From positions 13,888,001 through 13,952,000 of the forward strand of contig CM114271.1 of the NCBI GenBank assembly GCA_050084515.1: a stretch of DNA of 64,000 nucleotides, written 5' to 3'. The notes under the pieces are model-generated. The model was not told where the DNA came from and searched no databases. It was given only the letters and a program-made list of their open reading frames with translations. Below, one piece after another: positions 3,789 to 43,914 of this stretch; position 1 is the stretch's first letter; each line of letters begins with the position of its first letter. A program made the translations under genes and the position numbers. The DNA is from Blasia pusilla (Eukaryota).

Positions 3789-6700
3789 TGTCGTGCGCAT
3801 ACACATCGCTACACAACCCACATCGTTGGTCACATCTACACACCACACAACACCGATCTTCCCCAACATACGGGTAGATCCACACATAAAACAAATACCC
3901 TCACACATATACATCGAGGCCCCACAACCACCCCCTTAGCTGGCACTTGGGTCCCCCTAACTCTAGATAGTAAATGCCTGTGTGCCCGACATGATCTCTT
4001 ATCCTATACACATCTAGCACCATCAGTGCCGTCATCCCCATAACATTGCCACACTACAACATCACAGCAACCCGCCGTACTGATCCCTCCAAAGATATCT
4101 AACACTCTTGTACCCTACTCCAAACATAGGCACGGCTACTCGCCTACCTCAAGAGCTCGTCTGCACTCTACGCATCTCACCGCTCGTCCCCAACAACGAT
4201 AAAGAAGCTCCGCACCATTGGAAGAGACACAAACCGTGGCATGTCTCTCTGTGGGACTATCCGCTACAGGAATGTCCTTCGCATGTATGCTCCTCTTCCC
4301 GAATCCTCTTGATCAACTAACACTACCTTTGAATGCTACCAACGTGGTTACCGTATCCTCACGTGGCCGACCACCACTACCCGTTGCAAACAACACCGGT
4401 AGATGGCTCACCCGTCCATCACCTTATCACCACCCTGGCCGATAAAAAACCATCTCCTCCCAAAAATCCAAGATGAAACCAAGGGGGTACAACATCGTAC
4501 TCCCTACCAACACATCATACGACTCCGCCGGTGTCCTAATCTCCCGAGTGCGCACCATCGCACTATCCGACTCATGCTCTGGCTGGAGTCTAACCACCAA
4601 CTCCCATCGAGTCATGTACTGCGTGGGTGATACGCCCCCAATAGAGGTCTGTATCTGAAAGGGACAATGCTCAATGTCGCATTTCTGTAAACCCAACGCC
4701 AAACACGACTCCTTCCCTAACATCAAGGGTTGCGCTCCCGAATCAAGTAGGACGCGTTGCGGGTGGTACACCCTACCTGTGGGACTAACCAAGCAAAACA
4801 CTCTTGCTCGATTATCCAACAACACCGCACCTACTCTATGGCCACACGAGCTGGCATATCTACCAACTTCACCGCCGCCGCATGCCATGATCCAGTGGGG
4901 GACATCCCGAGCACCTACTCCAAGGGCAAGTCCACCACCTCCTCAACTACCTTTGAATGAGAGGCAGTCATCTCTCCACGCTCACACAATGTGACGGCCA
5001 GCCGGAACACCTCCACTGGTCCAACTCCCAACATCACCAACTCCATGGCGGAAAACAACAAAGTCTGGCTTACCCTAGCTAGTGGCCACCTCCAACAACA
5101 TGGTCGACACAAGCTCCACCCAAGCTGGCATAGGCATTGTCTTTCCAACTCCTCGTGACGTCGATGCACCTACCTCACGTGTGAGCACTACTGGTTGTCG
5201 AGGCACCATTGACAATGTATGAAGTGCCTCCAACAACGTGAATGACCGGGGAACCCTGGCCTACCGCCCATCGGTCCCCTCCTGTGGATCAATCTCAACC
5301 CTACCTCTGGATGGCTCGGTTACTCTCGCAGCGACCCAAGTCACCACTTCAGTAGCCTCAACCTGAGCCGCACTACACATAAATCCCATCCCCGTAGAAT
5401 CCTCACTAGCATCATGGTAAGATGTGGAGGGTGGCGCCACACTAGCTCCTCTTACCTTCGGGCCTGCCTTTAGCTGCATCATCATCATGGCAGCAATCCT
5501 TTGCTCCAACTGATCGATGCGCGTAAGGAGCGCTGCATGTGCCCATCCTCCATCTCCTGTGACTAGTGATGGCACTCTACCACCACGATCATCCACTACT
5601 CAATCTCCACCAACTCTCTCGCCCCCAAGTCCTCTGCCTACCTCTGGGCATATCTCCTGGCGAAGATCAAAACACCTATCCATAGTGTGACCATATCGGT
5701 GACAATGATCACACTACAACTGTGGCTCATGAGCAATCGGAGGCGCCCTTGGCCCTCTACCATGTTGTGGGTAGTCCCTTTGCCTATGTGACCCACCACA
5801 CGTCCAACAAACCAACCCTGGTCATTGCTAGAAAACATATGTTGGTACGGGCCATTAAGTTGTCTCATCGACTCACGATACCCGTCCTGCTCTCTGGGCC
5901 CATTGGCCCCCTCCCGTGGTATGGGTGCATGTTGGGATGCCTATGGATCTACTCCTACTCGTCAACCTGTTGAATCCCACAAAAATCCCATGTCATCACA
6001 TGCTCCTCACTCATGTTGAGCTCTGCGCGCTCAGACAACTCGAAGACCACCTTCAACATGGGCTTCACCGTGTGAAGCAACATCGAATCCCAAACTCTCC
6101 TCCTTAGCTCCTCGTCCAGCATCCCGTACCAATATTGTACTGACTCTGCCTCTATCACCCCACATGTGGCAATGATCAGCCGTCGCATGCGCGTGAATGC
6201 CTCCCTCAGACTCTCACCGGATCTCCGCTGGAAATCTTGTAGACTCTTCTGCATCGGTCCGCACGCCCTAGTTGCTCCTCCCCAACTGTCAGAAGAACTC
6301 CACTATAGGACTGAAACTTGGTGGTCCTCTATGGCGAGAGGTCTTTGCCAGCTCACCACTCTCATTGCCATCCTCTCCATCTAGTCCTCGGGCTCATGGT
6401 GAAGGTACCTCCGCTCTCACTATCCCATCATATGCCTCGCGGCCACTAGTGGACACATACCTTGGAGCCCAAGACACCCTCTAGGAATCCATCTCTACAA
6501 AGTATAGAGATCAAAAATCCATGTAATCATCCATCGGCGGACCTTCCAAGAGCTGGAACAACCCCTTCCATGCCATAACAGGGTTGAACCTCGTAGGGGT
6601 CTGTATCTCTTGGAAGTTGCAGCACATGTCAAACTCTTGGATGAAGGCATCTAGATCCACACCTGAGAAATGACGCATGCCATGATGGCCCATGTCGTCC

Positions 6701-18104: not shown

Positions 18105-18792
18105 TCATTGTGGCACTATGTGGTCTAAAAGTCCATCTCTGTTCGTCTTTCCATCATTTGTAACCTCATTATTGGGGACAAAGCTCATGAACCCTGGTGG
18201 AAGAGGTCTTGTTGTACTTGTAAGGTTTACGAGTCCATGTGGAGCATGGTCACCCCTATCGATCACGATGTTGTGGAGGATACAACAAGCAAATATCATG
18301 TATGATAATCTATTCAAGTTTGGATGATAAATAATTCGGTTGAGAATTCGCCATGAACCTTTGAGTGGTCCAAATGTCCTTTCTACACACATGCGCGTGG
18401 AAGAGTGAAGATGGTTCCTAGACTCTTTTCTCCCAGTTGCTCCTGGATATGGGACCATGAGCCAAGGTAAGATTGGATATTTTGCATCACCGATAATGTA
18501 CTCTTGAATTGTGCTGCCATTTCTAAGTGGAAATTTGGGAACCCTAACAACCCTTGTAGATGAACTTGCTAATTTGTAGAAAGTCGAGTTTCAGAGAAGT
18601 TGAGTGTCATGAACACAACCGGGGTATAATCCAAAGATATCTATAAATCTTAATTCAGAATCCACGATTGCTTGCATGACACAAGCATAACATTTATTCT
18701 TGTGGCTATACCATGACGTGGAATTTGAACCAGCTGGTAGTTCAAGGAGAAAATGCGTTCCATCAATAGCACCGCAATAATTCAGAAATCCA
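18105..18792 (-). pseudogene. Harbinger DDE transposase, 3' part
   Basis: CGAIDGTH, QAIVD, PGCVHD, IIGDAKYP, RMCVERTFG.LKG.WRIL and ACCILHN motifs. In-frame TGA near 18593. Confidence 0.9.
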
Positions 18793-18920
18793 TGTCGTGC
18801 GCATACACATCGCTACACAACATACATCGTTGTCACCGAACACACACACAAACACGCATGATCCCATGGTAACTCATGGCATCCAAACAACGAGACAAGA
18901 AGTACCAAAATATCTCCAAT
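18793..18920 (-). repeat. Repeat B2 (right terminus, 128 bp)
   Basis: Direct repeat of 19436-19557; outermost 45 bp identical. Also matches about 49386-49501. Confidence 0.92.
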
Positions 18921-19433
18921 AAAGTAAGATCCAATCTCTCTCTCCACCATCTCATACCATAGCTCTCAAAGGTGTGCACTATCTCTCATGTCAAACCAAA
19001 CCCACTCTCCTAATGAGAGGCTTGGGTTACACTCACAAGGCAAGGTACCATAGCTCCGCCGCCTCATGCCAAGAGGTTCAACAAAGAGATAATGAGCTCT
19101 CAAGCTCTCTCTCCTTGAGGTATACCCCTCCCCTCTCCCAAGTTCTCTCCATGCTAACCTATTCTCCCAAGTCACCTCCTTGGCTCTTGACCTGATGTAG
19201 GAGGTCAAGGGCCACTTACCAAAAATATAAAGTCGATCACATACTCAAAATGGTACTTACCTAAAATAGTAAGTTCCTCAATATGGCTCCAAATGAGCCG
19301 AAACGAAGGGGAAACCTGCTCTCTCAGGTTTCCGGGGGCCTCAGCAGGTCATCCGCGACCTACTGAGCATGTCCTCCACTACTCACAAAGGCGCTCTATT
19401 AGATCTCACCGATCTATCCTAAAAGACGTGACA
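18921..19433 (-). repeat. Repeat A2 (internal copy of the left terminus, 513 bp)
   Basis: Colinear with 29162-29674; about 13 substitutions by manual comparison. Confidence 0.95.
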
Positions 19434-19435
19434 GC

Positions 19436-19557
19436 TGTCGTGCGCATACACATCGCTACACAACATACATCGTTGTCACCACCCACAAATACGCATGATC
19501 CCATGCTAACTCATGACATCCAAACAACGAGACAAAAAGTACCAAAATATCTCCAAT
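19436..19557 (-). repeat. Repeat B1 (internal copy of the right terminus, 122 bp)
   Basis: Direct repeat of 18793-18920. Separated from A2 by only GC (19434-19435). Preceded on the sense strand by CTAGGGGGGCG. Confidence 0.92.
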
Positions 19558-19737
19558 CGCCCCCCTAGCTGGTGGTTAGGTCCCTCTAACTCCAGATAGC
19601 CATCTATCCCTACCTACCATGACATACATCTCTCGGACGCTAAGAGCAAGAAGGCCGGGTGCTCATGTGGCCCCATCGTTAGTCGCCTTCTTGTCATCCA
19701 TGTCACAGACACAAGTCGGAATGTAGAACTACCTACT

Positions 19738-21079
19738 CTATGTACATCTGGGACACATCCATCGTCCATGAGGAACCCTAGTGAGAGGTGGCGTCAAACA
19801 TGCCATATGCCATCCTCTCGAACACCCATCACAGACTAGCATCGTGGCCGCACCACGGGCAGAACCACACAACATACAACGCAAGCCTGCAGGAACTACT
19901 ACTAAGCTCGGATCTACTGTACCATCAATGTTAGGAAGCTGACATGGCGCACAATTACGCATATGGTCCTTCCATACCATACCATCGCGTCCCTCCAGCA
20001 AGAGAACACCCGATGGCAAAATGTCACGCACTCTCAAGATAGTGCGCCCTGCAGTCACATCCAACGTTGTCGGTGCCGTCTGCTGCAAGTAGACATAATC
20101 TCCCTGATGAAACCTCCGGATAGTTGGTCGATAACCACCACCCCGAATAGTCGCATACCTCAACGTATCCCGATGCTGTGCAATCGCCAAGTTCTCGAAC
20201 GCCATGGGCATCACTCTCCGAAATAACTCAGCCCTCTGAGAACATGCTCGCACCCATACATCTAGATCATCGAGGTTCAGCACCTCACCGGCATCTCGAC
20301 AAATGGCCGTAGGTAAATCTGGCTCTCGGCCATAAAGTAGCAAGTACGGTGAAAAAGACGCTAAGGATGCCTGCCTGTTGAATCTGTATCCCATCGCCAA
20401 CCATGGCAACTGGAGGTCCCAATCTCCTAGGTGACCTCTCTGCAAGCCATACTTGCGTAAACCCCTCTTCACCGTCTGCACAACTCTCTCCACTAATCCA
20501 TCCGCCTCAGGATGATCTCGCAAAGTCGTGCGGTGGTCGATCAGCGCCTGATCACACAAGGCCTGGAACTCACCGCAAAACTTGGTACCCTGGTCTGTCA
20601 ACACCTCAGCCGGTGCACCATAATGACTCAGCACTCTGTCAAGGAAGGCATAAGCTACTCCCTCACTCGCTTTGTCAAGCAATGCAACCAACTCGATCCA
20701 CTTTGAGAAGTGCTCGACCATCACCAACACATAACGACTATGACGCTCCGTTAAGGGCAAAGGTCCTGCAAAATCCAAACTCCATCTATACCCTAAGCCC
20801 ATGATCAGTAATGGATGCAAATGTGGAGTCGGAGCATTGAACGATGCTCGGACCCGATCACACACCATGCACCTGGCAACAAACTGCTGAAGATAAGTTT
20901 GCATGCCTCGCAACCAATACTGAAACTGGAGCAAGCTGTACGTCCGCTTCACCCCAAAGTGACCCAACTCTTCGTGGGCATGCTGCACTAGTCGTGCTCT
21001 CTGCGAAGGATGCGGCACTACGCGTACTCTGCCATCCTCCCAAACCCTCAAAACATGTGTCCCCTCCCAACGGAGCCGT
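19738..21079 (-). CDS. Integrase (HHCC zinc-binding, DDE core) with C-terminal PHD finger, copy 2; open frame
   Basis: HEELGHFG...CMVC, WSLDFAGP, VLTDQG, GLVER motifs, then CMLC...CDGCSRGWHMAC...WMCPRC (C4HC3). The ORF-track start at 21144 lies inside an insertion. Confidence 0.92.
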
Positions 21080-22349
21080 TGTCGTATAGTAAAATCAATC
21101 AGTGTGTAAACTCCTTTGTCATTAAGTGTTAGATAGAGTTTCATAAGTATTAAGTAAATTGGCTTAGAAAAAGGAGATTCTTATGTTTAAACCTCTTTAT
21201 GGTGCCTCTTTTATGCGGGCCCAACTTTAGGAAAAGGAGGTAATAAATAAAAGATGACTTTATAAAAGTAAAGTAGTTGCTTTAATGAAAAGCAAAAGTA
21301 GTCTTGGTTGGTGGCTAGGTTAGTTGGGGTAATTTAGAAAATATCATGTGGGTAAAAGAGGATATTTTGGAAGAGATAAGAGGAAATCTACTTGTGTCAA
21401 AATGTGATTGGCTAAGCCTTGGGAGGAAGCCATGTGGCACAAGATAAGATAAGCTCTATTTCGTACTCTTGTGGATCCCTTGTGAGTATATAAAGAGGAG
21501 GGACCTTCAAGGGTTCATCACCTTCTATTCCACATCTTGAGTCTCTCGTGTCTCTCTTGAATGTATGGCTTTGGGATTGCTTGCTCTTCCAATGAGAGTG
21601 GATCACCCCTCTTGGGAGAGTAACTTGACTATGGTCTATTCTTTGAGAGATTTCTAGAGTGTGGTGTGTGTGTGTGGGGATGAGAGGTTTGTCACCGTAG
21701 AGGAGTTTAGTCATACTAAAATAGCGAAAGTTTTGGCTTGTTACTTCCCCAATGAGAGTGGATTACCCCTCTTGGGAGAATAACTCCGCCAAAACCCATT
21801 CTTGAGAGAGAGAGAGAATGTGTCAAGCATGGATAGGGGTGGAGCACAGTGTGCCCGACTTTCCTTTCCTCAATCCTTACCATGTCAAGGTACTCTTTGT
21901 AGATAGGCCTTTGGTTCACTCGCTATTTAGTTTATCACTTTGGGGAGGCGTTCATGAACCAGGTCATGCAATCTCCAACTCCGGTGATTCTTCCTATCGT
22001 CACATATGGAAGGACATGGGATTGTACTTTGTATGTCCTTATATAGCGATCCATGGATGTCAATAGGCCTGGTCAAGTAGGGTTTAACACTAGTTGTACT
22101 ATCTTCCTCGTGTACAAACGTAAAATGGTTTATAGGGATTTTATAGTTAGGAATTTCGGGGTCCGATGTTACGAAGAAGTGATCGCCTTGGCACTTCCAT
22201 TTGTGATACCTGTCGTGAGAGAATGGAGAGTGTACATCATAATTTTGTATTGAAAAAGGAGAACTTATTAGAGAGTTCACCTTGCATCGACCGCATCTAC
22301 CGCAGCTAGAAGGCCCGCCCTTGCTCGAAGAAAGATTCTCGACACGACA
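21080..22349 (+). mobile_element. 1270-bp solo-LTR-like insertion in the pol of copy 2
   Basis: Ends TGTCGT...ACGACA; 4-bp TSD CCGT (21076-21079, 22350-22353). Removal restores QRARRLRWEG. Homologous to 37189-37855. Confidence 0.9.
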
Positions 22350-22539: not shown

Positions 22540-23400
22540 GCGTGGAATGCGTGAGATAGCCTCTACCTTCGTCAGCTGAACACCAAGGCCCCCTGGGTAT
22601 ATCATATGACCCAAGTACTCAATCTGGTCGTAGAAGAACTTGCACTTGCCTGGATGTAGCTTCAACCCATGTAATTACAATCGTCGAAACACCTCCTCTC
22701 GATGTTGCTCATGCTCCTCAACCGTGGCGCTAAAGACTACGATGTCATCAATATAACACATAGCAAAATCCAGACCAGCCAAGATCCTATCCATGACCCT
22801 CTGAAACTCAGACGGGGCGTTCTTTAACCCAAATGGTAAGAACCGCCACTGGTACAAACAATCCTTCCCGTGAGGATCGATGCCCCAAAATGCCGTCTTC
22901 TTCTTGTCCTCCAATCTGATAGGCAGCTGATGGTATCCGGCTCGCAAATCCAATGAACTGAAGACCTTTGCATGACCAATCGCATCAAAGATCTCCTCAG
23001 GGGTGGGCATGGCATACCTATCAGACTTTGTCTGCCGATTGATAGGTCGGTAATCCCCACACATCCGCCTATCGGTCCAGTTGCCATGCACATCCTTCTT
23101 GGCGGGCATGACAATGGCAGATGCATATTCCCCATGCGACATCTCCACTAGTCCTGCTTTGACCAAGTCCTGGCTCCTACTCTGAATCAGAGCCCTCTCC
23201 ATATCACTGTACCTGTAGGGTCGTCGGAAGATCGGCATATCATTCAACAACTCAATGTGGATCCCCGGTCCCTTCAACGTACCCAAATCCTCCGTGCTAA
23301 ACGCAAAGCAGGTCCTATAACTCCTGAGGAACTGATGTATTTGGCGCGCTCTCCTCCTGTCAACTTAGGGCCCATATCTGGCTCCCAAGTCTCCATCGTG
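22540..23400 (-). pseudogene. Ty3/Gypsy reverse transcriptase, copy 2
   Basis: RMCGDYRPIN, FSSLDLRAGYHQ, LPFGLKNAP, YIDDI motifs. Premature stop at 22675. Confidence 0.93.
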
Positions 23401-23704: not shown

Positions 23705-24670
23705 TCACGATCTCATACGATGCTGCTCAGCCACTCCCAAGATGAGGATCCATGTCAAGCAGTTCAAGTCCATCGCCTGATCGAAGACATGGCGTCGTGA
23801 TGCCTCTAACACTAATGGTACTGCCGTCACTCTTGTGGGAAATCCCATCGCTTGCTCTCTCTCGTCGGCGTTGGGCTCCACCAACCGCTGAACATAGTCA
23901 TCCCAAACCAAGCCAGGACCGGCCTCCTTGTATGCATAGGAAGTGGGAAAACTCACAAACGTGGGCAAGGCTGCTCGCTGCCTATCTACTGTGTTGACCA
24001 CAATCAACGGTGGTCAATCATCGTGCCTCACTGCCTGTGATCGACAACCTGGATCCAGAATGGAATCCACTAACAAATGGGAGGGGCGCTCCACTCTCGC
24101 ATACGCCCTCCATAACACCGCATGGGGCACCAAGTTGGTCCACCATAGACGCGGGCGATGGGCTCTAGAACCTACACTCGCCGCATCCAAGAACACTGCT
24201 GGGCCGATCCAGGCACGCACCTGATGAGCACTCGTCACCACCCGTGACCTGGAGTCTCCTAAGATCGGCACATTCTCCAGAATGTAGGCTGGACAATGAG
24301 ACTGGTGCTCATGCAACTACCGTAACACCCTCAACATCTCCCAAAACAACCTGGACCGAGTGTCAGCCAACCCGCTGCCTCGTCCAACACTCGATTGGCC
24401 CTGACATGGCCAACCGGCAATGACCAAATCAATGGTCCCTACCCGGTCTAAGTCCTGCGCCCCCAACAACAAAATATTCCTTGGTAGGGAACTCTGGTAC
24501 CCTTGTACTGCGGACGCAGACAATTGCGCCACATGTCGTAGTGAGATGCGCCTCACAACATCATCACTCTCCACATACAGTAACTGCTGTACTCGCACTC
24601 CTGCCTGCAAAACAACAGCTAACCCGGTGCTAATCCCTCCAAAGAGATCTAACACTCAAATACCCTCCTC
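23705..24670 (-). pseudogene. C5 cytosine methyltransferase domain (DNMT3-like) inside the polyprotein, copy 2
   Basis: Motif I LDLFGG, II YVESD, IV IAGWPCQG (catalytic PC), VI ILENV, VIII AHRPRLWWTN, IX EREQAMGFP, X-like DQAMD, in canonical order. Two internal single-codon stops in one frame. Confidence 0.92.
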
Positions 24671-25090: not shown

Positions 25091-25513
25091 CTAGTAATCC
25101 ATGGAAAACCCCATCGGGTATAACACTACTCCACCAACCAAGACGTCGTAGGACTCTATATCAGTCACTATCGCCTTGGCGCGCACCACGGACTCATCTG
25201 TAGGATGTCCCGGGCGAATCCTCACCACGACCTCATGCCGGGTGATATACTGTGTGGTACTCGCTCCACCCAAGGATGTCTGTATCCGGAATGGACAACG
25301 CTCCACATCGGCTCTCGTCAAGCCCAATCCTCTGAATGACACTTTCCCCAACATCAGGGGTTGCGCTCCTGAATCCAACAAGACGCACTGCGGACTAAAA
25401 GCTCTACCTCCAAGACTCACCAACTGGAAGACCTCTCCTCGGTTATCCAACAACACAACACCAGGAGAAGCCATGGCACGCTCTATCGCGGGTCTAGCGG
25501 GCATCTCCGCCAT
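25091..25513 (-). pseudogene. Retropepsin aspartic protease, copy 2
   Basis: VLLDSGAQ active-site motif and YDVLVG C-terminal motif. Confidence 0.85.
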
Positions 25514-25849
25514 CCTAGCAGCCGCAGCCTACCATAAATCTGACGTGGACGGCCTGAGCATCCGCTCCAAGGGCAGGTCCATCACCTCCTCTGCAATCAC
25601 CTCTGAACGTGATGCAGGAAATCCAACTCTGTGCTCACATAGTGAAGCGGCCAGCAAAAAAGCCTCGGCGGGCGTACCCCCCAACGTCATAACATCGGAA
25701 GCGGAAAATAAAGGAGTGCGGTACACAACGGAGGCCACCCCCAACAACGTGCTCGACACATGCCCCTCCTGAGCATCAACAATAGGAGTCGTTGCACTCG
25801 CTTCTCCCATCGCCCTCCGTGCCTGCACACCAACAACATCACCAACTCT

Positions 25850-27532
25850 CTAGGAACTTTGATGAGGACCCATCGATGGGGTCTCATCGCCGGACAACGT
25901 GAAAGACTGAGGAAGCCTAGTCTGTCTTCTGGCTTCCCCTCGTTGTGGATCCAACTCTGCGGCTGCTCCATGCGTCACAACTGCAGCAGCCTCCATGTGG
26001 GCAACCCCGCACATCCATCCAGGATCCTCCAGATCTCTGGCTGCTCCATATGATGTCGATGCCACGGATCTGGCATCGGGTAACCTCAATGCCATAGCGG
26101 CAATCTGCTCCTATAGCTGCTGTATCTGAGCAGCCATCCCAGCCTCACGTCCGGCGTCTCCCTCGGTGCATCTAGGTGGTGGTACTCTACCTCCTCCACG
26201 GGCAGCTCCACCACCCTGTCGGGCAACTCCAGCTCCTCGTCCCCCAATGGGATCACCTGGTGCACAATCTCTAGGCCCACCCGGACCGGCTACTCGCTCT
26301 GGTGCCCTCTCTGGCCCTCGGTCCGGACGTAACTCAAGATGTAAACTGAAACACCTGGCGCGTGTATGACCATACCTGTGACAATAGTCACACAGATAAC
26401 CTCCTGGTGCAGCACCATCTCCTCCTCCATGTTGAGGCACACGTCCATGACCCTGAGGAGTGCAATCGCGCTGATGATGGGCTCCACCACATGACCAACA
26501 AGTAATAGTAGGCGGCTGCTGTTGAGCCGCATATGAAGGCGCAGGTCTCTATGGCACGGCCTCTCGATATCCTCCCTGAGCTCGTGGTGCCACAGTCGAC
26601 CTATCTCGGAGTCCACGTTGCTACACAGGTGGTGCAGACAATCGTGACTGCTCTCGCCCAGAACCCATGGTGGCTACGCTCTCCTCCGCCATGTTGCGCT
26701 CAATGTTCTCAGCGGTCCTAAAAACATCTCTCAACCTAGGGGAGGTGTTCATAAGAAGCACCCCCTCCCGCACCCGTATGCGCAGGGTCCGGTCCAACAT
26801 CGGATACCATGACTGGATAGCCTGAGCCTCTGTCACCCCCTGAGTGACGTTGATCAACCGGCGCAAGCAAGTGTAAGCCTCACGCAAACTCTCACCCGGG
26901 CGCCTGTGGAAGTCGTGGATGGTCCGCAACTTCTCCGTCCATACCCCCTAGTAGCTCGCCCTCAACTCAGCAAAGAACTCAACCACAGGGTTGAACCTGG
27001 GACGAACCTGACTAGACGGTGCAACTGCTCCCGTGCGAGTGACCCCTCCTAAAACGTCACTAGTGGAAGAGGCAGTAGCCTCTCGTGACTCCTCCTCCTC
27101 ATCTGGGAACGGCTCCGTCCATGACACATAATGTGGGTCATAGTAGAGCCTCCACGCCTCGATCTCACATGCATATCTCTGAGAGAACTCATGGTAATCG
27201 TCCATGGGCGCCCCCTCTAAATTCTGGAACATATCGTTCCATGCTGTAAACGGGTTGAACTCTCTAGAGTTTCTGGCCCGCTGGAAGTCGCACCAACTCC
27301 TAAAATCTGCTATAAAATTGTGCAACTCAATTGTGCCTACTGCACCTGAAAACCTACGCGGTCCTCTACCCCGGTCGTCCATCTTGTACGCCCAACTGGT
27401 AGGACCACTCACAATGTGTGGCGATGTGCTCACAAACTCCTCTACACCCTCCCCCTTGTCTGACGATGACACAGAAGGAGGTCGAGATGGTCCCTCACGT
27501 GGAGACCCTCGGAACCTCGCGCCACTCCGCAT
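25850..27532 (-). pseudogene. Gag with CCHC zinc knuckle, copy 2
   Basis: Retrotransposon-gag-like FHRRPGESLREAY motif and CDYCHRYGHTRARC knuckle. Broken by stops. Confidence 0.85.
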
Positions 27533-29161
27533 AAAACCTCTAGAGCTACTCTCGGGTTCACCACCTCGCCTCTCAAAGTCCCGAACGGACTCCGTGATGA
27601 CCCTCGTGCCCCTCTCACCCGATCACTCTGAACCTCGTGAGTAATCCCTCAATCACTCATCCCAAACATGCGGCACTCGATCTACACTCTCTCTCCACGA
27701 GACGTGTAACGTGCGGCAACACGCGGCGTGGTGCGGCAAATCGACCATGCTATCATCTCATCGACAACCTACCCTCAACTTCGGACATCCCACACATGTC
27801 TATGTCCCCTAAACCACATACATAAATGATGCTCTCAACATCCACACACCCAATATCCCCAAAAAAACTACCCAAATCCCAGAATCCCTCACACGTGCAG
27901 GGTAAAGGACCAGAATGGGTAACCTGAACACATGTCGATGTCGCTCCTCAGCAACTGCAAATCTCGACCCCAACTCGATCGTGGAGACAACTCCTCCAAT
28001 CATCAAGTCATACTCCTCCCGTATTGACGCTGCTCAAAACTCCTCGATAGACAGTGCGGTCCCAACGGAACGGTGTGGCGTTGCAGGCGCCACGGAACGG
28101 CTACGAACGGCACGGCCCTCTTGCAAAACTGCCATTGCTAGGCGATTTTTAGGGTTAAATTGTTCAAACCCTAAACCAGCCGCCACGCCGGCGGCGGCAT
28201 TTGCTGTCATAGTCACCGTGGTCCGCCGTCGACGGTCAACCATCACCATCACCGCCGGTCAAGCGGTCACCGTCGGCCGTAACGGTCCACCGTCCATTGT
28301 CCACCCTTTGGGTGCCATTGCCGCCATTACGGAGTGGAGGGTCTTCCACGACGTTTGTTGATTCCTTGACTTGCGTCGCCACCACGTACTTTGTTTTGGC
28401 CGCCACCGTCATCGCAGTTTTGTCATCAACCAGTGATGGCAGATGACCTCTGGTTATGGTGTTTGAGTTTTGATTTCATGCTGCTATGTTGTGATTGGTA
28501 GCCGTTCGACGACGATCGAGTATCGTGTCGTGATGCCCGTAGCCGCCGTGCCGCTCGTGGCCGCACCGCACCGTCTCGATCGCGGAGCCGCACCGTCATT
28601 GTGGAGCAGAGTGTGGGTTTATTGTTGATTGAGGAGGGTATGCCGCCAACTGCCGCATCCCACCATAACTTTTTTTCTCGCAATTCCAAATTGCGCAGTG
28701 TTTGTTGCACAACATGCAGAGCTTCACGATCTACGACAGCATCAAAAAATATTTAGAATTGGACATTCTAGTAAAAACTGACGGGGACTGTCGTAAAGCC
28801 CAATGTCTCTTTCTCCTACACAAAATTTGGCAGCGCTTCCGCGCTGATTTCTCCCAACGAAAATGTAAAACCTGTAAAAATACAAATGAGCAAGCTACAT
28901 GGTGCTCCCGAGAGCACCGGCATGGGGCAACCCGCCCCCATACTCAATCCCTATAAAAAATTGGGCAGCATTTCCGCGCGCCACTCTTCCACAAAAAAAA
29001 TCGGCAAATGCAAAGAACAATCAAAGCAGCCCTTGCTCCGGTGAGCACTCCCATGAGTCGCTGAACGGGGAACACGGTCCCCAACCTGAAAAAACAGCGA
29101 GTGACTAGCGATCTCCCCCATGAAGCTCTCTCACTCTCTCATTCTCTCATTCTCTCTTTGT

Positions 29162-29674
29162 AACGTAAGATCCAATCTCTCTCTCCACCATCTCACACCA
29201 TAGCTCTCAAAGGTGTGCACTCTCTCTCATGTCAAACCAAACCCACTCTCCTAATGAGAGGCTTGGGTTACACTCACAAGGCAAGGTACCATAGATCCGC
29301 CGCCTCATGCCAAGAGGTTCAACAAAGAAATAATGAGCTCTCAAGCTCTCTCTCCTTGAGGTATACCCCTCCCCTCTCCCAAGCTCTCTCCATGCTAACC
29401 TATTCTCCCAAGTCACCTCCTTGGCTCTTGACCTGATGTAGGAGGTCAAGGGCCACTTACCAAAAATAAAAAGTCGATCACATACTCAAAATGGTACTTA
29501 CCTAAAATAGTAAGTTCCTTAATGTGGCTCCAAATGAGCCGAAACGAAGGGGAAACCTGCTCTCTCAGGTTTCTCGGGGCCTCAGCAGGTCATCCGCGAC
29601 CTACTGAGCATGTCCTCCACTACTCACGAAGGCGATCTATTAGATCTCACCGATCTATCCTAAAAGACGTGACA
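29162..29674 (-). repeat. Repeat A1 (left terminus, 513 bp)
   Basis: Matches 18921-19433 and, in opposite orientation, 38995-39508. Not adjoined by a B repeat. Confidence 0.95.
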
Positions 29675-29678
29675 TCCA

Positions 29679-31599: not shown

Positions 31600-33370
31600 G
31601 TGTACAAGGGGAGTGATTTGATGAGAGTGAGGGTAAAGCTTAATGAGGGAGAGTTCAAGAGCTCATTCTCTCTTTGTTGAACCTCCTTTGCACAAGGGAG
31701 TGAAGCTATGATCATGATGCTTCTTACGGCTTCATTCAACTACAACTTTGTGTTTTTTCCTTCGTTTTGTATAATGTAGTGAGCTCAAAACTTGATAAAA
31801 GGGAGCATTATCGTTGAAGGTGACAACATGCGTGATAGTGTCTCCACGGATGCTACAAACTACACCTCAAGATTAGATTCATGATTCCCACAACTACAAG
31901 AGGATATCATGAGAAAGGACCACAACTAGTATAATCTTCCAATAGGAAGAAGGCATCAAGTTTGATTTGTTTAGGTGGACGTTATAGATGTGATGCACGA
32001 AAATCTTGCTAGTGAGATTGGAGATAGTAGGATAGAGGACATGTGGCATCCCATTGTGTATACCACATGGTTCAAGAAAGGTCATTATTGTCTTAGTGTT
32101 ATCATTTCCAAAGATATGGCTACGTACTCAAGAAATGCTTTGGACTTATCCCAAGTTGTTGCTAGATGGGGGTCAAACATTATGACTCGTCTTTTGTAGC
32201 ATATTGGCGAGTATTCATGGGTCAAGAATGACCTTATGATGTCAAGGATGACCTTACGAGGACTAGGGTAACTTGAGAGAGCAAATTTTCCCCTATTTAG
32301 ACTCATTTAAGGCCATATTGAGTTATTTACTATTTTGGGTAAACTTCTATTATGAGCATAGATGAATTTCCATTCTGATAAGTGGCCCTTCATCCCCTAT
32401 TGTAAGTTAAGAGCTAAGCTTGTGATCCGTGTGCACAAGTCATCAAGAAGAGAGTTTGGGAGAGCGAAGGGATATACCCAAGGAGATAGAGTTTGGGAGC
32501 TTATTCTCTCTTTGTTGAACCTCCTTTCCTCAGGAGGAGAAGCTATGGTCCTCCTTGCCTTGTGACTAACCCAATCCTCTCACCAAGACAATAGATTTAC
32601 TTTGCCATAAGAGAAACATGGAGAATATGTGAGAGATTTGATATGACACATAACAAAGAGAAAATGAGACTAAGAGCTCTATAATGTGGCACTTATAGAG
32701 TGGGAGCTTGTTGATATTTGGCAGGTTGAGGATCGTGTTTCCCATTATGCGGCTCATGGAAGTACTTGCCAGAGTAAAAGCCCATAGATTGTGCTCAATT
32801 TTGAAACAAAAGCACAATTACACAAAAATAGATATGGATGGACAAGTTTGGACATGCCACAAACATGGATCGCAAGAGATGGGGCCCATATGTATAATTC
32901 ATGATGGAAGGTAGGGCAAGGGTGGGCAGGGCAATAAGGTGGGGAAGAGTGGATGTGTAGGGAGGAAGAAACGGGAAAGCTAAGAAAAAAATAAGGTGAG
33001 AACGATGTCAAGGATGTCTACTTACTTAATCTATATCCCATTGCCAACCAAGACAACTATTGGTTCCTATCTCCTAGATGACCTCTCTATAAGTCATACT
33101 TGCGCAAACTCATCTTTATCGTATGAACAACTCACTCTAAGTCCATCCGCCCTAGGATGATCTTGTGAAGTGGTGTAGTGGTCAATCAAGGCGTGATCAC
33201 ATAAGGCTTAGAACTCTATATCCTAGGCTATCAACATAGCCGTTGGTGCACCATACTGAGCTATTATTATTGACTCAGCACTTGATCTAGGAATGAAAAT
33301 GCTCTTCCTTCACTTGCTTTTTCCTGCAATGCAACTAACTCTACCTACTTTGAGAAGTACTAGATCACTT
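31600..33370. mobile_element. Old fragments of the DNMT-Gypsy family: two A-repeat-like pieces (+) and an integrase piece (-)
   Basis: GAGCT(C/T)ATTCTCTCTTTGTTGAACCTC near 31660 and 32500 matches the A repeat. 33040-33370 aligns with the integrase core at 20390-20720. Confidence 0.65.
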
Positions 33371-37188: not shown

Positions 37189-40100
37189 TGTCGTATAGTA
37201 AAATCACCCGCTATGTAAACTCCTCTATCATTAAGTGTTAGAGAGAGTTTTATTAAGTAAATTAGCCTAGGAAAATGAAATTCTCATGTTTAAACTTCTT
37301 TAGGGCGACTCATTTGCGCGGGCCCAACTTTAGGAAAAGAGATAATAAATAAAAGATGAGATTAGAAAAGTAAAGTAGTAGGGTTGGTGCTTTAATAAAA
37401 CAAAAACAAAAAGAGTCTTGGTTGGTGGCTAAGGTTGGTGGGGTAGTTTGGAAGATATGAAGGGAGTAAAAGCTAGAGGATATTTTGGAAGAGATAAAAG
37501 GTAATCTACTTGTATCAAAATATGATTCGCTAAGCCTCCATACTCCATACTCTCCTCAAGTATGGAGCACGAGTTGTGTCGGATTTTTCTTTCCTTAATC
37601 CGTACCACTTAAGATTCTCTTTGTTGATAGGTACCGATTCACTCGCTATCTAGTTTATCACTTTGGGGACGCATTCATGAACCAAGTCATGCAATCTCTA
37701 ACTTCGGTGATTTTTCCAATAGTCACGTACGGAAGGACATGGGATTGCACTTTATATGTCCTTATATAGCTATCCATGGATGTCAATAGGCCTACTCAAA
37801 TAGGATTTAACACTAGTTGTGCTATTTTCCTTGTGTACAAACGTAAAGTAGTTAGAAGAGACAACAACTATCCTCTTCCGAGGATAGATGACCTCTTTGA
37901 TCGATTGTCGAGTGCCAAGTATTTTAGCTAGATTGACCTGAAATCAGGTTATTATCAGATGACAGATTCGGATTTCCAAAGCGGATGTAGAGAAGACTGT
38001 GTGTAGGAAGAGATACGGTTTTTTCGAGTTTGTGGTAATGCCTTTCGGTCTATGTAATGCAACTCTGACGTTCACCACTTTGATGAACTCCATCTTTCAT
38101 AAGAATACGGATGAGTATGTGATCATCTACATAGATGACATACTCGTTTATTTGAAAAAACTAGAGGAGCACGATCGGCATTTGAAGACGGTGTTTGAGA
38201 AACTCAAGGCGAGCAAGCTGTATGCGAATGCAGATAAGAGTGAGTTTGGTTTGATGAAGATCAAGTTATTGGGTTATGTGGTTAGTGGAAATGGAGTGAG
38301 TCTAGACATGAAGAAGGTAAGCCCAATTTCCGAATGGGAACCGCCTTCCACTGTGAGGGGATAAGGAGGTTCATCGGAGCGGTCTATTTTTACCGGACAT
38401 ATGTGAAGAACTTTTTGGGAATAGTGAAACCTCTCAAAAATTGGACCTCCAAGTTTTCCAACACAACATGAACCGAGGAAGTGGATAAGAATTTCAACCG
38501 AGTCAAGGAGATCCTCTCTTAGGAACCAGTTCTGAAGGTGCCGGAGTTTGACCAACCGTTCAAGGTGCACAATGATGCTAGTGATTTTGCGATTGCAGGT
38601 ATGTTGGTATAAAAAGGGAGACCTGTAGTATACGAGAGCAAGAAGCTTAGCGACATCAAAAGGAGATGGCCCACTCATGAGAAAGAGTTGTTCGCGGTGG
38701 TTCATTGTTTAAGGAAGTGGCGTGACTATTTGGGACTTCGCAAGATTCGAGTATTCACTGATAACATTTTGCTCAAGTATTTTGAGACCCAAGATCGCGT
38801 AACACCGAAGCAACTTCGATGTCATGATACCTTGGTGTTGATGAATGTGGAGCTAATCCACAAGCCCGGGAAAGACAATGTCATTCCAGATGCGTGAAGT
38901 CGTAGGGATGAGCATATGCCATTGACAACACAAGTCTTGAAAACAATGTTCCCTAATTAAGCAGACCTCGAAAGAAGGATTTCTGAAGGATACATATCAT
39001 GTCTTTTAGGATAGATCGGTGAGATGTAATAGAGCGCCTTTGTGAGTATTGGAAGACCGGCTCAGTAAGTCAAGGATGACCTACTGAGGCCCGGGGAAAC
39101 CTGAGAGAGCATGTTTCCCCTTCGTTTCGACTCATTTGGAGCCATATTGAGAAACTTACTATTTTAGGTAAGTACCATTTTAAGTATATGAACGACTCTC
39201 TATTTTTGGTAAGTGGCCCTTGACCTCTTACATCAGGTCAAGAGCCAAGGAGGTGACTTGGGAGAATAGGTTAGCATGGAGAGAGCTTGGAAGAGGGGAG
39301 GGGTATACCTCAAGGAGAGAGAGCTCGAGAGCTCATTCTCTCTTTGTTGAACCTCTTGGCATGAGGCGGTCGAGCTATGATCCCTTGCCTTGTGAGTGTA
39401 ACCCAAGCCTCTAATTAGGAGAGTGGGTTTGGTTTGACATGAGAGAGAGTGCACACCTTTGAGAGCTATGGTGTGAGATGGTGTAGAGAGAGATTGGATC
39501 TTACTTTACAAAGAGAGAATGAGAGAATGAGAGAGCTTCATGGGGGAGCTCGCTGGTCACTCACTGTTTTTGCAGGTTGGGGACCGTGTTCCCCGTTCAG
39601 CGGCTCATGCGAGTGCTCACCGGAGCAAGGGCTGCTTTGATTGTTCTTTGCATTTTCCGATTTTTGTGTGGAAGAGTGGCGGGCGGAAGCGCTGCCCAAT
39701 TTCTGATAGGGATTGATTATAGGGGTGGGTTGCCCCATTCTAGTGCTCTCGGAAGCACCATGTAGCTTGCTGATTTGTATTTTTATAGGTTTTACATTTT
39801 GGTTGGGAGAAATCAGCGCGGAAGCGCTGCCAAATTTTGTGTAGAAGAAAGAGACATTGGGATTTACGACAGTCCCTGTCAGTTTTTACTGGAATGTCTA
39901 ATTCCAAATATTTTTTGACGCCGTCGTAGATCATGAAGCTGTGCACGTTGTGCAATAAACAGTGCGCAATTTGGAGTTGCGAGTAAAACATTATGGTCAA
40001 TCTTGAAAAATTGCCATTGCTAGGGGATTTTTAGTGTTAAATTGTTCAAACCCTAAACGAGCCGCCACGCCGGCGGCGGCCGTCGCCGTCATAGTCACTG

Positions 40101-43100
40101 TCACCAATCAACGGTCAACCATCACCGTCAATGGTCTATCGTCACCCTCAACGGTCACCCGTCACCGTCAACGGTCCGTCGTCACCATCAACGGTCCACC
40201 GTCCATCGACCACTATCAGCCGTTGCCGTTGCCCAGCGTTGCTCAGAGCCGCATTTGGCCGTTGTCCACCCTTTGGTTGCCATTGCCGCCAGTATGAAGT
40301 GGAGGGTCTTCCACGACCACTGTTGATTCTCTGACTTGCGCCGCCACCACGTACTTTGGTTTGGCCGCCACCGTCATCGCAGTTTCGTCATCAACTAGTG
40401 ATGGTGGATGACCTCCGGTTATGGTATTTGAGTTTTGATTTCATGTTGCTATGTTGTGATTGGTAGCCGCTCGACGACGATCGAGTACCGTGCTGTGGCG
40501 CCCGTAGCCGCAACGCGCAGCCGATTGCCGCGCCGTGCCGCTCGTGGCCACACCGCACCGTCTCGATCGCGGAACCGCACCGTCATTATGGAGCAGAGTG
40601 TGGGTTTATTGTTGATTGGGGAGGGTAGGCCTCCGAGTCCCGCATCCCACCATCGAGGGTCGTGCCGTTTGTAGCCGTTTTGTGCTGCCTGCAATGCCGT
40701 ACCGTTCCGCTGGAACCGCACTATCTATCGAGGAGTTTTGAGTAGCGTCAGTACGGGAGGAGTCTGACTTGCTGATTGGAGGAGTTTTCTCCATGACCGA
40801 GTTGGGGTCGAGATTTGCAGTTGCTGAGAAGCGACATCGACATGTGTTCCGGTTACCCATTCTGGTCCTTTACCCTGCACGTGTGAGGGATTCTGGGATT
40901 TGGGTAGTTAACTTGGGGATATTGGGTGTGTGGATGCTAAGAGCATTATTTATGTATGTGGTTTAGGGGACATAGACCTGTATGGGATGTCGGGGTTGAG
41001 GGTAGGTTGTCGATGAGATGATAGCCTAGTCGATTTGCGGCACTCACGAGGCAAGAATGATCGGGTGAGAGGGACATGAGGGTCATCATGGCGTCCGTTC
41101 GGGACTTTGAGAAGGGAGGTGGTGAACCCGAGAGTAGCTCTAGAGGTTTTACACTGAGTGGCACGAGGTTCTGAGGGTCTCCACGTGAGGGACCACCTCG
41201 AACTCCTTCTGTGTTGTCTTCAGATGAGGGAGAGCGTGTAGAGGAGTTTGTGAGCACATTGCCACACATTCTGAGTGGTCCTACCAGTTGGCGTTGAGAT
41301 GGACGCCGGGGGGTAGAGGACGCGTGAGGTTTTCAGTGCGATGAGGCACGATTTCTGAGTTTAGGAGTTGGTGCTACTCCCAACGGGCTAGGAACTCTAG
41401 AGAGTTTAACCCGTTTACAGCATGGAACAGTATGTTCCAGCATTTAGAGGGGTGCCCATGGACGATTACCATGAGTTCACTTAGAGATATGCACATGAGA
41501 TCAAGGCGTGGAGGCTCTACTATGACCCACATTATATGTCATGGACGGAGCCGTTCCCAAATGAGGAGGAGGAGTCAGGAGAGGCTAGTTCCTCTTCCAC
41601 TAGTGACGTTTTAGGAGGGGTCACTCGCACGGGAGCAATTGCACCATCTAGTCGGGTTTGTCCCACGTTCAACCCTGTGGTTGAGTTATGTGCTGAGTTG
41701 AGGTCGAGCTACCAGGGGGTACGGACGGAGAAATTGTGGAGCATCCACAACTTTGAGAGGTGCCCGGGTGAGAGTTTGTGTGAGGCTTACACTCGCTTGC
41801 GCCGGTTGATCAACGTCACTCAGGGGGTGACAAAGGCTCAGGCTATCCAGTCATGGTACGCAATGTTAGACCGGACCCTGCGGACACGGGTGCGGGAGGG
41901 GGTGCTTCTTATGAACACCTCCCCTAAGTTGAGAGATTTTTTTAGGAAGGCGTAGCCACCATGGGTTTTGGGCGAGAGCAGTCATGATTGCCTGTACTAC
42001 CTGTGCAACAACGTGGACTCCGAGATAGGTCGACTGTGGCACCACAAGCTTAGGGAGGATACCGGGAGGCCGTGCCATAGAGACCTGCACCTTCATATGC
42101 GGCTCACTAGTAGCCGCCTACTATTACTTGTTGGTCATGTGGTGGAGCCCATCATCAACGCGATTGCATTTGTCAAGGTCATAGACGTGTGGCTCAACAT
42201 GGAGGAGGAGATGGTGTTGCACCAGGAGGTTATCAGTGTGACTATTTTCACAGGTATGGGCAAACACGCGCCAAATGTTTCATTTGATATCCTGAGTTAC
42301 GTCCGGATTGAGGGCCTGAGAGGGCACCAGGTGGTCCCGTTGGGGGACGAGGAGCTGCAGTTGCTCGACACGGTGGTGAAGCTGCCCATGGAGGAGGTAG
42401 AGTCCCACCACCTAGAGGCGTTGAGGGAGATGCCGGGCGTGAGGCTAGGATGGCTGCTCAGATACATCAGCTACAGGAGCAGATTGCCGCTATGGCATTG
42501 AGATTACCCGATGCCGGATCCGTGGCATCGACATCATATGGAGCAGCCAGAGATATGGAGGATCCTAGTTGGATGTGCGAGGTTGCCCAGATGGAGGTAG
42601 CCGCAATTGTGACGCGTGGAGAAGCCGCAGAGTTGGATCCATAACGAGGCAAAGCCAGGAAACAGACTAGGCTTCCTCAATCTTTCACATTGTCCGAGGC
42701 GATGAGGATCCCATCAATGGGTCCTAATCAGAGTTCTTGGTGATGTTCTTGGTGTGCAGGCATAGAGGGCGATGGGAGAAGCAAGTACAACGACTCCTAT
42801 TGTTGATGTTCAAGAGGGGTATGTGTCAAGCACGTTGTTGGGGGCGGCCACCATTTTGTACCGCCCTCCTTTATTTTCTGCTTCTGATGTTATGACGTTG
42901 GGGGCTACCCCCGCCGAGGCTTTTTGGCTGGCCGCTATGCAATGTGAGCATGGAGTTGGAGTTCCTGCATCACATTCAGAGGTGATTGCAGAGGAGGTGA
43001 TGGACCTGCCCTTGGAGCGGATGCTTGGGCCGTCCACGTCAAATTCATGGCAGGCTGCGGCTGCTAGGATAGCGGAGATGGCCGTGATAGAGCATGCCAT

Positions 43101-43914
43101 GGCTTCTCCTGGTGTTGTGTTGGTGGATAACCGAGGAGTGGTCTTCTAGTTGGTGAGTCTCGGAGGTAGAGCTTTTATTCCGTAGCGCGTCTTGTTGGAT
43201 TCAGGAGCGCAACCCCTGATGTTGGGGAAAGCGTCATTCAGAGGATTGGGCTTGACGAGAGCCGATATGGAGCGTTGTCCATTCCGGATACAGACATCCT
43301 TGGGTGGAGCAAATACCACACAGTATATCACCCGACAGGAAGTCGTGGTGAGGATTCGCCCGGGACATCCTACAGATGAGTCCGTGGTGCAAGCCAAAGC
43401 GATAGTGACTGATGCAGAGTCCTACGAGGTCTTGGTTGGTGGAGCAGTGTTATACCCGATGGGGTTTTCCCTACATTACTGGGAGGAATCAGCGTCCTAC
43501 AGACCAGGATGACAATCAAGTGATGGGCGCCTTAGCTCATTACCCGTTCAATTCACAGTTGCAATGATCGAGCGACGGCCAGGAGAGGTGGCGACCTTAG
43601 CAGCATTTAGTAGTGCCATCACTTGGCCTAGTGATTTGATTGAGGGACATGTCTATGCAGAGGATACTCCCGTTCCTGAAATTTCTATGGAGAGGAGTGT
43701 TATGGTAGCCGCATCATTCTGTGGAGGAGAGGTGCCGTTGTGGGGCTCGACTAAGGAGCTTCGACGATTGGCAGATGAGCACGTGCAGACTGCGTGGAGC
43801 GAGGCGTTTGCACCGGAGCGTGATGGGTCTGAGAAACCCGAGGTAGCATGGAGTGCTACGATGACACCCTTGGATACCACACTCATTGTGTGGTGTATCC
43901 CGGAGGAGGGTATT

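Follow-up and report, generated by a model that had tools for sequence, protein, structure and literature searches.

A split-repeat Ty3/gypsy lineage represented in Blasia pusilla and a possible origin of its inserted copies as circular permutations of the reverse-transcription product

Long terminal repeat (LTR) retroelements are taught to integrate the two ends of a linear complementary DNA (cDNA), and in reverse transcription of the LTR type U3 begins right after the polypurine tract (PPT) while U5 ends right before the primer-binding site (PBS). Elements of the Ngaro/PAT type use a tyrosine recombinase and leave no target-site duplication (TSD), and the B|A joint of their repeats is the presumed opening site of a circular form. 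KnitGypsy-Dnmt3, a Gypsy element whose pol includes a Dnmt3-type domain, has been described from Klebsormidium nitens (de Mendoza et al. 2018, PMC5890265); the legend of Fig. 4c of that paper credits it with repeats structured as in DIRS elements and with the domain composition of Gypsy. The split-repeat Gypsy layout was already published in 2018, and the observation itself is known. In the available portions of the text of PMC5890265, no TSDs, PBS, PPT, or mechanism were found for KnitGypsy-Dnmt3; a literature search found no mechanism for the split-repeat layout of Gypsy elements and no use of the KnitGypsy name beyond that paper. Here we examined a stretch of 64,000 nucleotides of Blasia pusilla (GenBank assembly GCA_050084515.1, contig CM114271.1, positions 13,888,001 to 13,952,000 of the forward strand; hereafter the window, with coordinates counted from its first letter), in which an earlier note made from the letters alone had pointed out a retrotransposon with a DDE integrase and with split direct repeats, A1-coding-B1-A2-B2, where LTRs would stand. 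This layout was found to be the property of a lineage. To the published observation we add TSDs of 4 bp, the location of the PPT and that of a putative self-priming PBS, a spacer of constant 2-nt length, a U5|U3 joint, two inserted forms, and a spread over multiple species.

The repeats of the element were delimited by repeat finding and self-BLAST, which bore out the positions first proposed for A1, A2, B1, and B2 and the restriction of the full layout within the window to a single copy (copy 2, minus strand). In sense order this copy reads TGGA / TGTC...A1 - coding - PPT - B1...GACA - GC - TGTC...A2 - B2...GACA / TGGA, such that its outer ends are TGTC at the start and GACA at the finish. 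The 5′ terminal repeat A1 (29161..29674) is 97.5% identical over 514 nt to A2 (18920..19433), and B1 (19436..19557) is 91.4% identical over 128 columns to the 3′ terminal repeat B2 (18793..18920), with the mismatch mostly consisting of a length change in a (GT)n run (a 6-nt indel) and with one A common to B2 and the end of A2. Between B1 and A2 lies a 2-nt spacer, GC (19434..19435), inside the palindrome GACA-GC-TGTC, which we read as two abutted integrase end-sites. The PPT, AGCTAGGGGGGCG (19558..19570), is positioned directly 5′ of B1. Adjoining the other end of the coding region, at the end of A1, is a putative self-priming PBS (29146..29161) recognized by complementarity, by RNA folding, and by family-specific pairing; A1 itself has a TATA box (29365-29362, read as a motif) and a 16-nt segment complementary to the PBS (29337-29322, from complementarity tests). 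In the A2|B2 joint, the base that immediately precedes the PBS adjoins the base that immediately follows the PPT, without any added letters, and A2-B2 as a unit of ~640 bp resembles an ordinary LTR with TG...CA ends and has no TSD of its own. The copy is bounded by TGGA on both sides (5′ TSD, 29675..29678; 3′ TSD, 18789..18792), and deleting it together with one TGGA yields an in-frame host open reading frame (ORF), the upstream ORF stopping at phase 0. The gene so restored matched HTH_Tnp_4 (weakly) and DDE_Tnp_4 (E 1.3e-08) in Pfam and is, on these matches, a PIF/Harbinger-type transposase gene. A second TSD-bounded insertion, copy 3 (38995..49501, plus strand), has A at its start and one B at its finish and is flanked by TACA on both sides (38991-38994 and 49502-49505), as determined by self-BLAST and by reading its ends. 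Thus, the proposals that copy 2 is a TSD-bounded insertion whose excision restores the host frame, that copy 3 has a different sequence at each end, and hence that the two termini of the element are different sequences, all hold; so does the proposed lack of a TGG-initiated PBS after A1.

The layout was followed in 80 metagenome loci found by scanning contigs for the integrase (INT), a small sample and one selected through that protein. Patterns of A and B were assigned by self-comparison and then with nhmmer profiles of A and B, and loci sharing a 3′ flank were merged and counted as one distinct insertion. The integrases of these loci were 38-80% identical, mostly 42-69%. The order INT-B-A-B was detected at 28 of the 80 loci (15 distinct insertions), and INT-B-A truncated by the contig end at 1 locus (1 distinct insertion). 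INT-B alone, followed by unrelated sequence, was found at 23 loci (13 distinct insertions), A only at 2 (the diverged pair L035/L036), and no match at 26, which represented short contigs or too-diverged families. Full copies with a visible A1 were (i) the L003/L042/L043 group and (ii) L062, each with the TSD CATA. The L016/L041/L075 group, whose members are paralogues of one insertion, had A1, a single B, and a TSD, GGTT, that was pieced together from two of the members (L041 for the 5′ flank, L075 for the 3′ flank). All five independent insertions with both ends visible had TG...CA-type ends and a 4-bp TSD (TGGA, TACA, CATA, CATA, and GGTT), and a TSD of 5 bp was excluded by L003 and L062. 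B was absent from the 5′ end in 8 of 8 visible cases, comprising window copies 2-5 and the L003, L016, L062, and L068 groups (the only four groups to show a 5′ end among the metagenome loci), and B1 was upstream of A2 in every full copy. As a side observation, the metagenome copies are AT-rich and riddled with stops, and within the element two of them (L043 and L062) have no ORF longer than 160 aa; the copies nonetheless keep the spacer, the PPT, and the layout of the repeats.

The genome from which the window derives was also found to have the B1|A2 joint in quantity. From two DNA runs, 121,097 and 6,458 contigs aligned to a 1.4-kb stretch, and dozens of contig variants of the B-NN-A joint (where NN is the 2-nt spacer) were present in the two runs; a single variant at the spacer (19435) was by itself carried by 53 and 54 different contigs. 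Given this many contig variants, the joint is therefore present in many genomic copies. A protein search recovered 217 long relatives at E <= 1e-20 among 8,000 candidates scored; of the 120 matches listed, nearly all had a PHD finger and 17 a DNA_methylase domain, and the named relatives among the matches listed were Haematococcus, Pleodorina, Tetrabaena, and Chlamydomonas. The family is real, spread through the green lineage, and extends beyond one species. Of the two outcomes that the earlier note had set against its own reading, confinement of B1-A2-B2 to this one locus is disproved by the 15 distinct insertions, and ordinary identical LTRs in most copies by relatives that have no ordinary LTRs.

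The signals at the borders of the repeats were conserved along with the repeats. The PPT ended 0-3 nt before B1, as AGCTAGGGGGGCG in the window and as AAATAGGGGGG-type sequences in relatives. Of 29 distinct insertions, 21 had a run of at least 4 G in the 18 nt preceding B1, and the sequences of the other 8 resembled mutated versions of it. The B1-A2 spacer measured 2 nt in 15 of 16 related junctions (the 15 that were readable), with AC, AT, GC, or GT as its letters among relatives, and the joint as a whole followed the consensus ...(G/A)ACA NN TGTCA..., with 4-bp inverted ends; in the reads of the genome itself, AC was commoner at position 19435 than the GC of the window. A TATA box was located ~25-30 nt upstream of the segment of A that is complementary to the post-A site, and this was so in both lineages. 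The complementarity was strongest in copy 3, in which the 16 nt following A1 matched A positions 336-351 at 16 of 16 positions (0 of 200 shuffles as good), and in L016 and L041, in which 13 of 13 nt matched (again 0 of 200 shuffles). Three classes with different post-A sequences were distinguished, each paired by its own A segment. Duplex energies, used because the register of pairing is offset by an indel from one family to another, ranged from -9.1 to -25.4 kcal/mol within a class and from -2.0 to -10.2 between classes. At the level of sequence, such class-specific pairing is covariation between the A segment and the PBS. In folding of the RNA stretch bounded by the segment and the post-A site, the 5′ segment paired with the PBS in both the minimum free energy and the centroid structures (z -3.1). 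No tRNA gene was detected by ARAGORN in the window or in 60 loci.

Domain analysis of copy 2, which is interrupted by many stops, was consistent with this assignment of repeats and signals to a Gypsy element. On the minus strand the order of pol is protease (PR), DNA methyltransferase (DNMT), reverse transcriptase (RT), and integrase, with the DNMT between PR and RT. The integrase (19738..21180) has an H2C2 domain, an rve core, and a C-terminal PHD finger (Integrase_H2C2 7.8e-15, rve 1.2e-12, PHD 1e-10), and its translation retains the D, D, and E residues with the 35-residue spacing. The reverse transcriptase (22675..23364) matched RVT_1 at E 7.1e-23, and the C5 cytosine DNA methyltransferase, in three ORF pieces (23705..24655), matched DNA_methylase at E 2.4e-08. 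The putative protease region (25091..25528) was recognized by homology to the PR of relatives, with no Pfam match in the window copy, and the stop-broken gag-like ORF pieces (26111..27622) by a tblastn match to the gag region of relatives and a sub-threshold zinc-finger match in Pfam; all of these lie on the minus strand. When the 80 metagenome loci were searched by tblastn, GAG1, GAG2, and PR were detected at 15, 16, and 21 loci, respectively, and the three DNMT pieces were found between PR and RT at 35, 27, and 21 loci. An intact relative (P0012) matched the Ty3 Gag-Pol at E 3.5e-101, with RT at 1394-1833, INT at 1913-2151, and a PHD finger thereafter, and carries the protease domain PF13650. 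No match to Phage_integrase or another recombinase was found by Pfam in the 18 sense ORFs of copy 2, a decayed copy from which small remnants could escape. By its domains the element is classified as Ty3/gypsy, of the composition GAG-PR-DNMT-RT-RH-INT-PHD (RH, RNase H). The proposed identity as a DDE-integrase Gypsy element was borne out, since the D,D35E triad is intact, TSDs are present, and pol is Ty3-like. Pol order, a Ty3-related RT, a D,D35E integrase with H2C2, a short TSD, and TG...CA ends were all found as in Ty3/gypsy; identical LTRs bounding the inserted copy were not, as copies start with A and end with B. The adjacency of the PPT to B1, and of the putative PBS to the end of A1, would match the Ty3/gypsy scheme if the LTR is taken to be B-NN-A. 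A side observation on domain order comes from L009, in which the DNMT pieces lie between RT and INT and not between PR and RT, from which the methyltransferase may have either moved within pol or been gained twice.

Transcripts of the element were examined in two stranded RNA read runs. The reads were sense, the first mate mapping mostly to the plus strand and the element lying on the minus strand, and they spanned internal-B1-GC-A2 unbroken, with 31-53 reads over 19432/19435. In run X22, 40 reads bridged the end of A and the adjoining internal sequence, the arrangement found at A1. RNA depth was found to drop over the last ~100 nt of A and to be lower on B2, and the unique 3′ flank had no RNA reads in the two runs. 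Two further observations were made on these data. First, an RNA joint between 19611 and 19122 was present in both runs (4 and 8 reads, with 3 and 5 starts). It skips 488 nt, from the PPT through B1 and the spacer to ~311 nt into A2, has a 4-nt microhomology and no GT..AG, and lands in the TATA box. The DNA contigs, from which rare variants are dropped, did not show this joint, and a deletion copy or a template switch may account for it. Second, over 18500-19900, C>T and G>A dominated the differences between reads or contigs and the window (in X22, for example, at 90 and 57 places, versus 5-32 for other kinds), an excess that is the pattern expected of methylated-cytosine deamination, in an element that itself encodes a cytosine methyltransferase.

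Since the PPT lies before B1 and the PBS after A1, the LTR seen by the reverse transcriptase would be B-NN-A, and the positions of the PPT, PBS, and TATA box therefore fit ordinary LTR-type reverse transcription with that LTR. The expected linear cDNA should be [B-NN-A]-PBS-coding-PPT-[B-NN-A]. Transcription would start in A1, ~25-30 nt past the TATA box, and proceed through the coding region, the PPT, B1, and NN into A2. The first ~13-16 nt of this RNA would fold onto the post-A1 sequence and prime the minus strand (self-priming of the Tf1 type), and the PPT before B1 would prime the plus strand. U3 would then consist of B, NN, and the first two thirds of A, with R-U5 as the remaining A. The integrase end-sites (TGTC... 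and ...GACA) would thereby be abutted in U3 as a CA-NN-TG palindrome, away from the LTR ends; the ends of the B-NN-A LTR are themselves neither TG...CA nor conserved. Because A2|B2 is the exact U5-end|U3-start, this joint appears to have formed when such a cDNA circularised end to end. We lean modestly toward the view that what is inserted is the reverse-transcription product in circularly permuted form and that the integrase cuts the CA-NN-TG joint in circular or end-joined cDNA. The integration step is one that we infer from the anatomy of the copies, as are the transcription start and the self-priming.

Under this model of a circularly permuted provirus, the integrase would cut 3′ of CA on both strands, leaving a recessed CA-3′OH and a 2-nt 5′ overhang. 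Recessed CA-3′OH ends are the normal substrate of strand transfer. The substrate would be circular or end-joined cDNA, and its insertion would yield the 4-bp TSD; the NN spacer is absent at the ends of inserted copies, as joint cutting predicts. Two inserted forms would follow: (i) a two-LTR circle cut once would give A1-coding-B1-NN-A2-B2; and (ii) a one-LTR circle cut in the same joint, or a later recombination between B1 and B2, would give A-coding-B, a presumed dead end. Only the first form would give a replicable RNA, because the 3′ U3-R is retained in no other. The earlier suggestion that the lineage replicates by a non-canonical mechanism survives in part: reverse transcription looks ordinary in its PPT, self-complementary PBS, and TATA box, and the choice of integration ends is more likely the unusual step. 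Extended to a whole clade, the model would state that the PHD-finger Gypsy elements of the green lineage (those bearing a DNMT, and perhaps Gypsy-7a) keep CA-NN-TG in U3 and normally integrate by cutting this joint in circular or end-joined cDNA, which we advance tentatively, as a possibility with somewhat less than an even chance. Taken together, the evidence supports a circularly permuted provirus as a model that is specific and can be tested.

Several results weigh against this model. At the level of inserted forms, a circle cut at the joint is predicted to give A-B-NN-A-coding-B as well, and none was present among the 8 visible 5′ ends; solo A-B units are likewise predicted, and none was detected in the 80 loci of the small, integrase-selected sample. 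Nearly half of the insertions are of the single-B form, a dead end under the model, and in those retroelements that have been studied, two-LTR circles are a minor product and a dead end. At the level of RNA, neither clustered starts or ends of molecules nor a depth step over A at the predicted start was found in the two runs, and reads were also found on B2, up to its end. B1 and B2 are similar enough for either placement; the B2 reads may derive from B1 of other copies, or transcripts may run past A2. At the level of priming, a strict perfect-match test was passed by only 3 of 8 sequences (2 families). The complement in L003 and L043 was 8 nt long and was equalled by 111 and 86 of 200 shuffles, that of window copy 2 was equalled by 35 of 200, the post-A site of L068 had no perfect match of at least 8 nt in A, and the best perfect match of L062 (8 of 200 shuffles) lay elsewhere in A. 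The sequences that failed this test do pair at the homologous place when mismatches and G-U pairs are allowed, the mismatches being as expected because the copies are decayed, so that for these sequences the pairing is suggested by mismatch-tolerant duplexes in decayed copies. The primer may instead be a tRNA fragment.

The alternative that survives best, although we consider it unlikely, is that a transposase-like integrase acts on linear cDNA, nicking the internal TG of the left LTR and the internal CA of the right LTR, with the outer pieces trimmed by repair to leave A-coding-B; the full A1...B2 form would then arise only from rare end-joined molecules. The abundance of the single-B form speaks for this, as it accounts for 13 of 29 distinct related insertions and for 2 of 3 visible 3′ ends in the window, and at least two single-B copies (window copy 3 and the L016/L041/L075 group) are complete between TSDs. 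However, a single-B copy is without A2, and so without the 3′ R and most of U3, and is not expected to give a replicable RNA. A lineage mainly making such copies would die out, yet B-NN-A-B has been kept across families with integrases 42-69% identical, and the single-B copies can equally arise by recombination between B1 and B2 after insertion.

A replication cycle like that of Ngaro/PAT elements was also weighed and is, in our judgment, distinctly unlikely. In such a cycle the RNA would extend from inside A1 to inside B2, the ends would be rebuilt by template switches over the B1-NN-A2 bridge, and the integrase would insert A1...B2. The layout is formally that of the split-direct-repeat elements, and RNA reads do reach the end of B2, although the similarity of B1 and B2 makes these reads explicable as B1 reads of other copies. 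This cycle leaves no role for the conserved PPT at the start of B1 or for the self-complementary PBS at the end of A1, which together are ordinary LTR-type signals, in a scheme where the B2 of the RNA is never copied; and no primer site was found at the end of B2.

The two remaining explanations have next to no chance of being correct. A one-off event (an internally deleted head-to-tail dimer, a solo unit nested in the element, or an assembly error, the true relatives having identical LTRs) would suit the finding of the full layout in copy 2 only within the window, but is refuted by 15 distinct B-NN-A-B insertions with the same 2-nt spacer, by the dozens of joint variants in two DNA runs, by the independent publication of the layout, and by the lack of a TSD around A2-B2. 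Equally, an ordinary ~640-bp LTR composed of A+B, with B deleted from the 5′ copy in every element, is suggested by the normal LTR appearance and TG...CA ends of A2-B2, but is refuted by the 8 of 8 visible 5′ ends without B, by the position of B1 before A2 in every full copy, and by the PPT preceding B1 rather than A2 and the PBS following A rather than B.

The other copies in the window add detail to the family. Copy 3 has an internal deletion of ~130 nt that removed the PPT and the first ~11 nt of B, and the DNA into which it is inserted (38850-38994 and 49506-49700) is another Ty3/gypsy-like element, the flank translation of which contains a HKPGKDNVIPDA-type motif that we take to be typical of the border between RNase H and integrase. 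Copy 1 is represented by its 3′ end (3789..3970, minus strand), which belongs to a diverged family and reads internal-PPT-single B ending in GACA, followed by unrelated flank. Copy 4 (55997..64000, plus strand) is of an ~82% identical family, has an internally deleted A, extends past the window edge, and adjoins the 3′ internal region of another copy. Copy 5 (32192..32668, plus strand), of an ~73% family, has an A with a TATA box, a primer segment at 32500-32515, and a PBS at 32653-32668, and is preceded by a PPT-like run. At both of the last two 5′ ends (55980-56000 and 32150-32200), the preceding sequence is the 3′ internal region of an element in the same orientation and not host DNA: the A of copy 4 begins 21 nt short of the expected end of its neighbour's PPT, and the A of copy 5 comes after a PPT-like G-run plus ~8 nt. 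These arrangements could represent insertions nested close to the PPT, tandem elements with one LTR in common, or families in which B is very short. Apparent joints of ~640 nt between B2 and B1 in the DNA contigs were considered as candidate single-B copies and were rejected, as they were short contigs spanning the variable (GT)n of two similar repeats.

The target sites of two of the insertions were found to be alike. Window copy 2 and the L041 insertion (~11676, with L016 and L075) are independent events in different organisms, and both lie at nearly the same place in PIF/Harbinger transposase genes; the distance from the end of the TSD to the AIDGTH codons at the start of the DDE_Tnp_4 domain is 18 nt in the window and 16 nt in the L041 group. 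This sharing may be due to chance, to a target preference, or to the spread of the interrupted Harbinger element itself.

From an insert whose two ends lie within its own LTR it follows that the integrase sites are located elsewhere than at the LTR ends, most simply at a circle joint, and the old unresolved idea of the circle joint thereby becomes testable in an alga. If the model is correct, this lineage would naturally and obligately integrate by the "circle junction" route, an idea abandoned long ago for retroelements. An element with a DDE integrase would then have converged on the split-direct-repeat design of the tyrosine-recombinase elements, which would explain the look-alike layout. 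A practical consequence is that LTR finders would pair A1 with A2 and miss B2 and the TSD, with wrong boundaries and insertion ages for a very abundant family as a result. Furthermore, with a DNMT and a PHD finger in the same elements, the biology of their integration bears on the interaction between transposons and host chromatin.

Compared with known systems, the window element is like KnitGypsy-Dnmt3 in having a C5 DNMT inside a Gypsy pol, between PR and RT, and in its A-coding-B-A-B repeats, and on these features it is most likely a member or a close relative of that family. It shares the A1-internal-B1-A2-B2 order with elements of the Ngaro/PAT type and is unlike them in its D,D35E integrase, TG...CA ends, and 4-bp TSD, with no recombinase found in 18 sense ORFs; of the characters that mark DIRS, Ngaro, and PAT elements, the split direct repeats are present, while a tyrosine recombinase and the absence of a TSD are not. 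The Tf1/sushi elements and the plant Tcn1 clade self-prime, according to the available part of Neumann et al. (2019, PMC6317226), and the window element resembles them in having no tRNA-type PBS and a post-U5 sequence complementary to the presumed 5′ end of the transcript; unlike these elements, which have ordinary identical LTRs and a chromodomain, it has a PHD finger and permuted ends. The integrases of HIV-1 and foamy virus cleave the palindromic LTR-LTR joint of 2-LTR circles, as stated in the available portions of PMC1905944 and PMC1180852, and in like manner the DDE integrase of the window element would cut an abutted CA...TG joint. In retroviruses, joint cleavage is a side reaction on a by-product, whereas the window element carries the joint permanently, presumably as its normal substrate. 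Finally, the left LTR of Gypsy-7a_cRei from Chlamydomonas reinhardtii is without the last 8 bp present in the right LTR, according to the legend of Fig. 6A in Craig et al. (2022, PMC9940879). Compared by that partial description only, it is likewise a PHD-finger Gypsy, and the 8-bp difference between its LTRs is the look expected of a very short B; among the matches listed by our protein search, integrase relatives came from C. reinhardtii and from other volvocine species.

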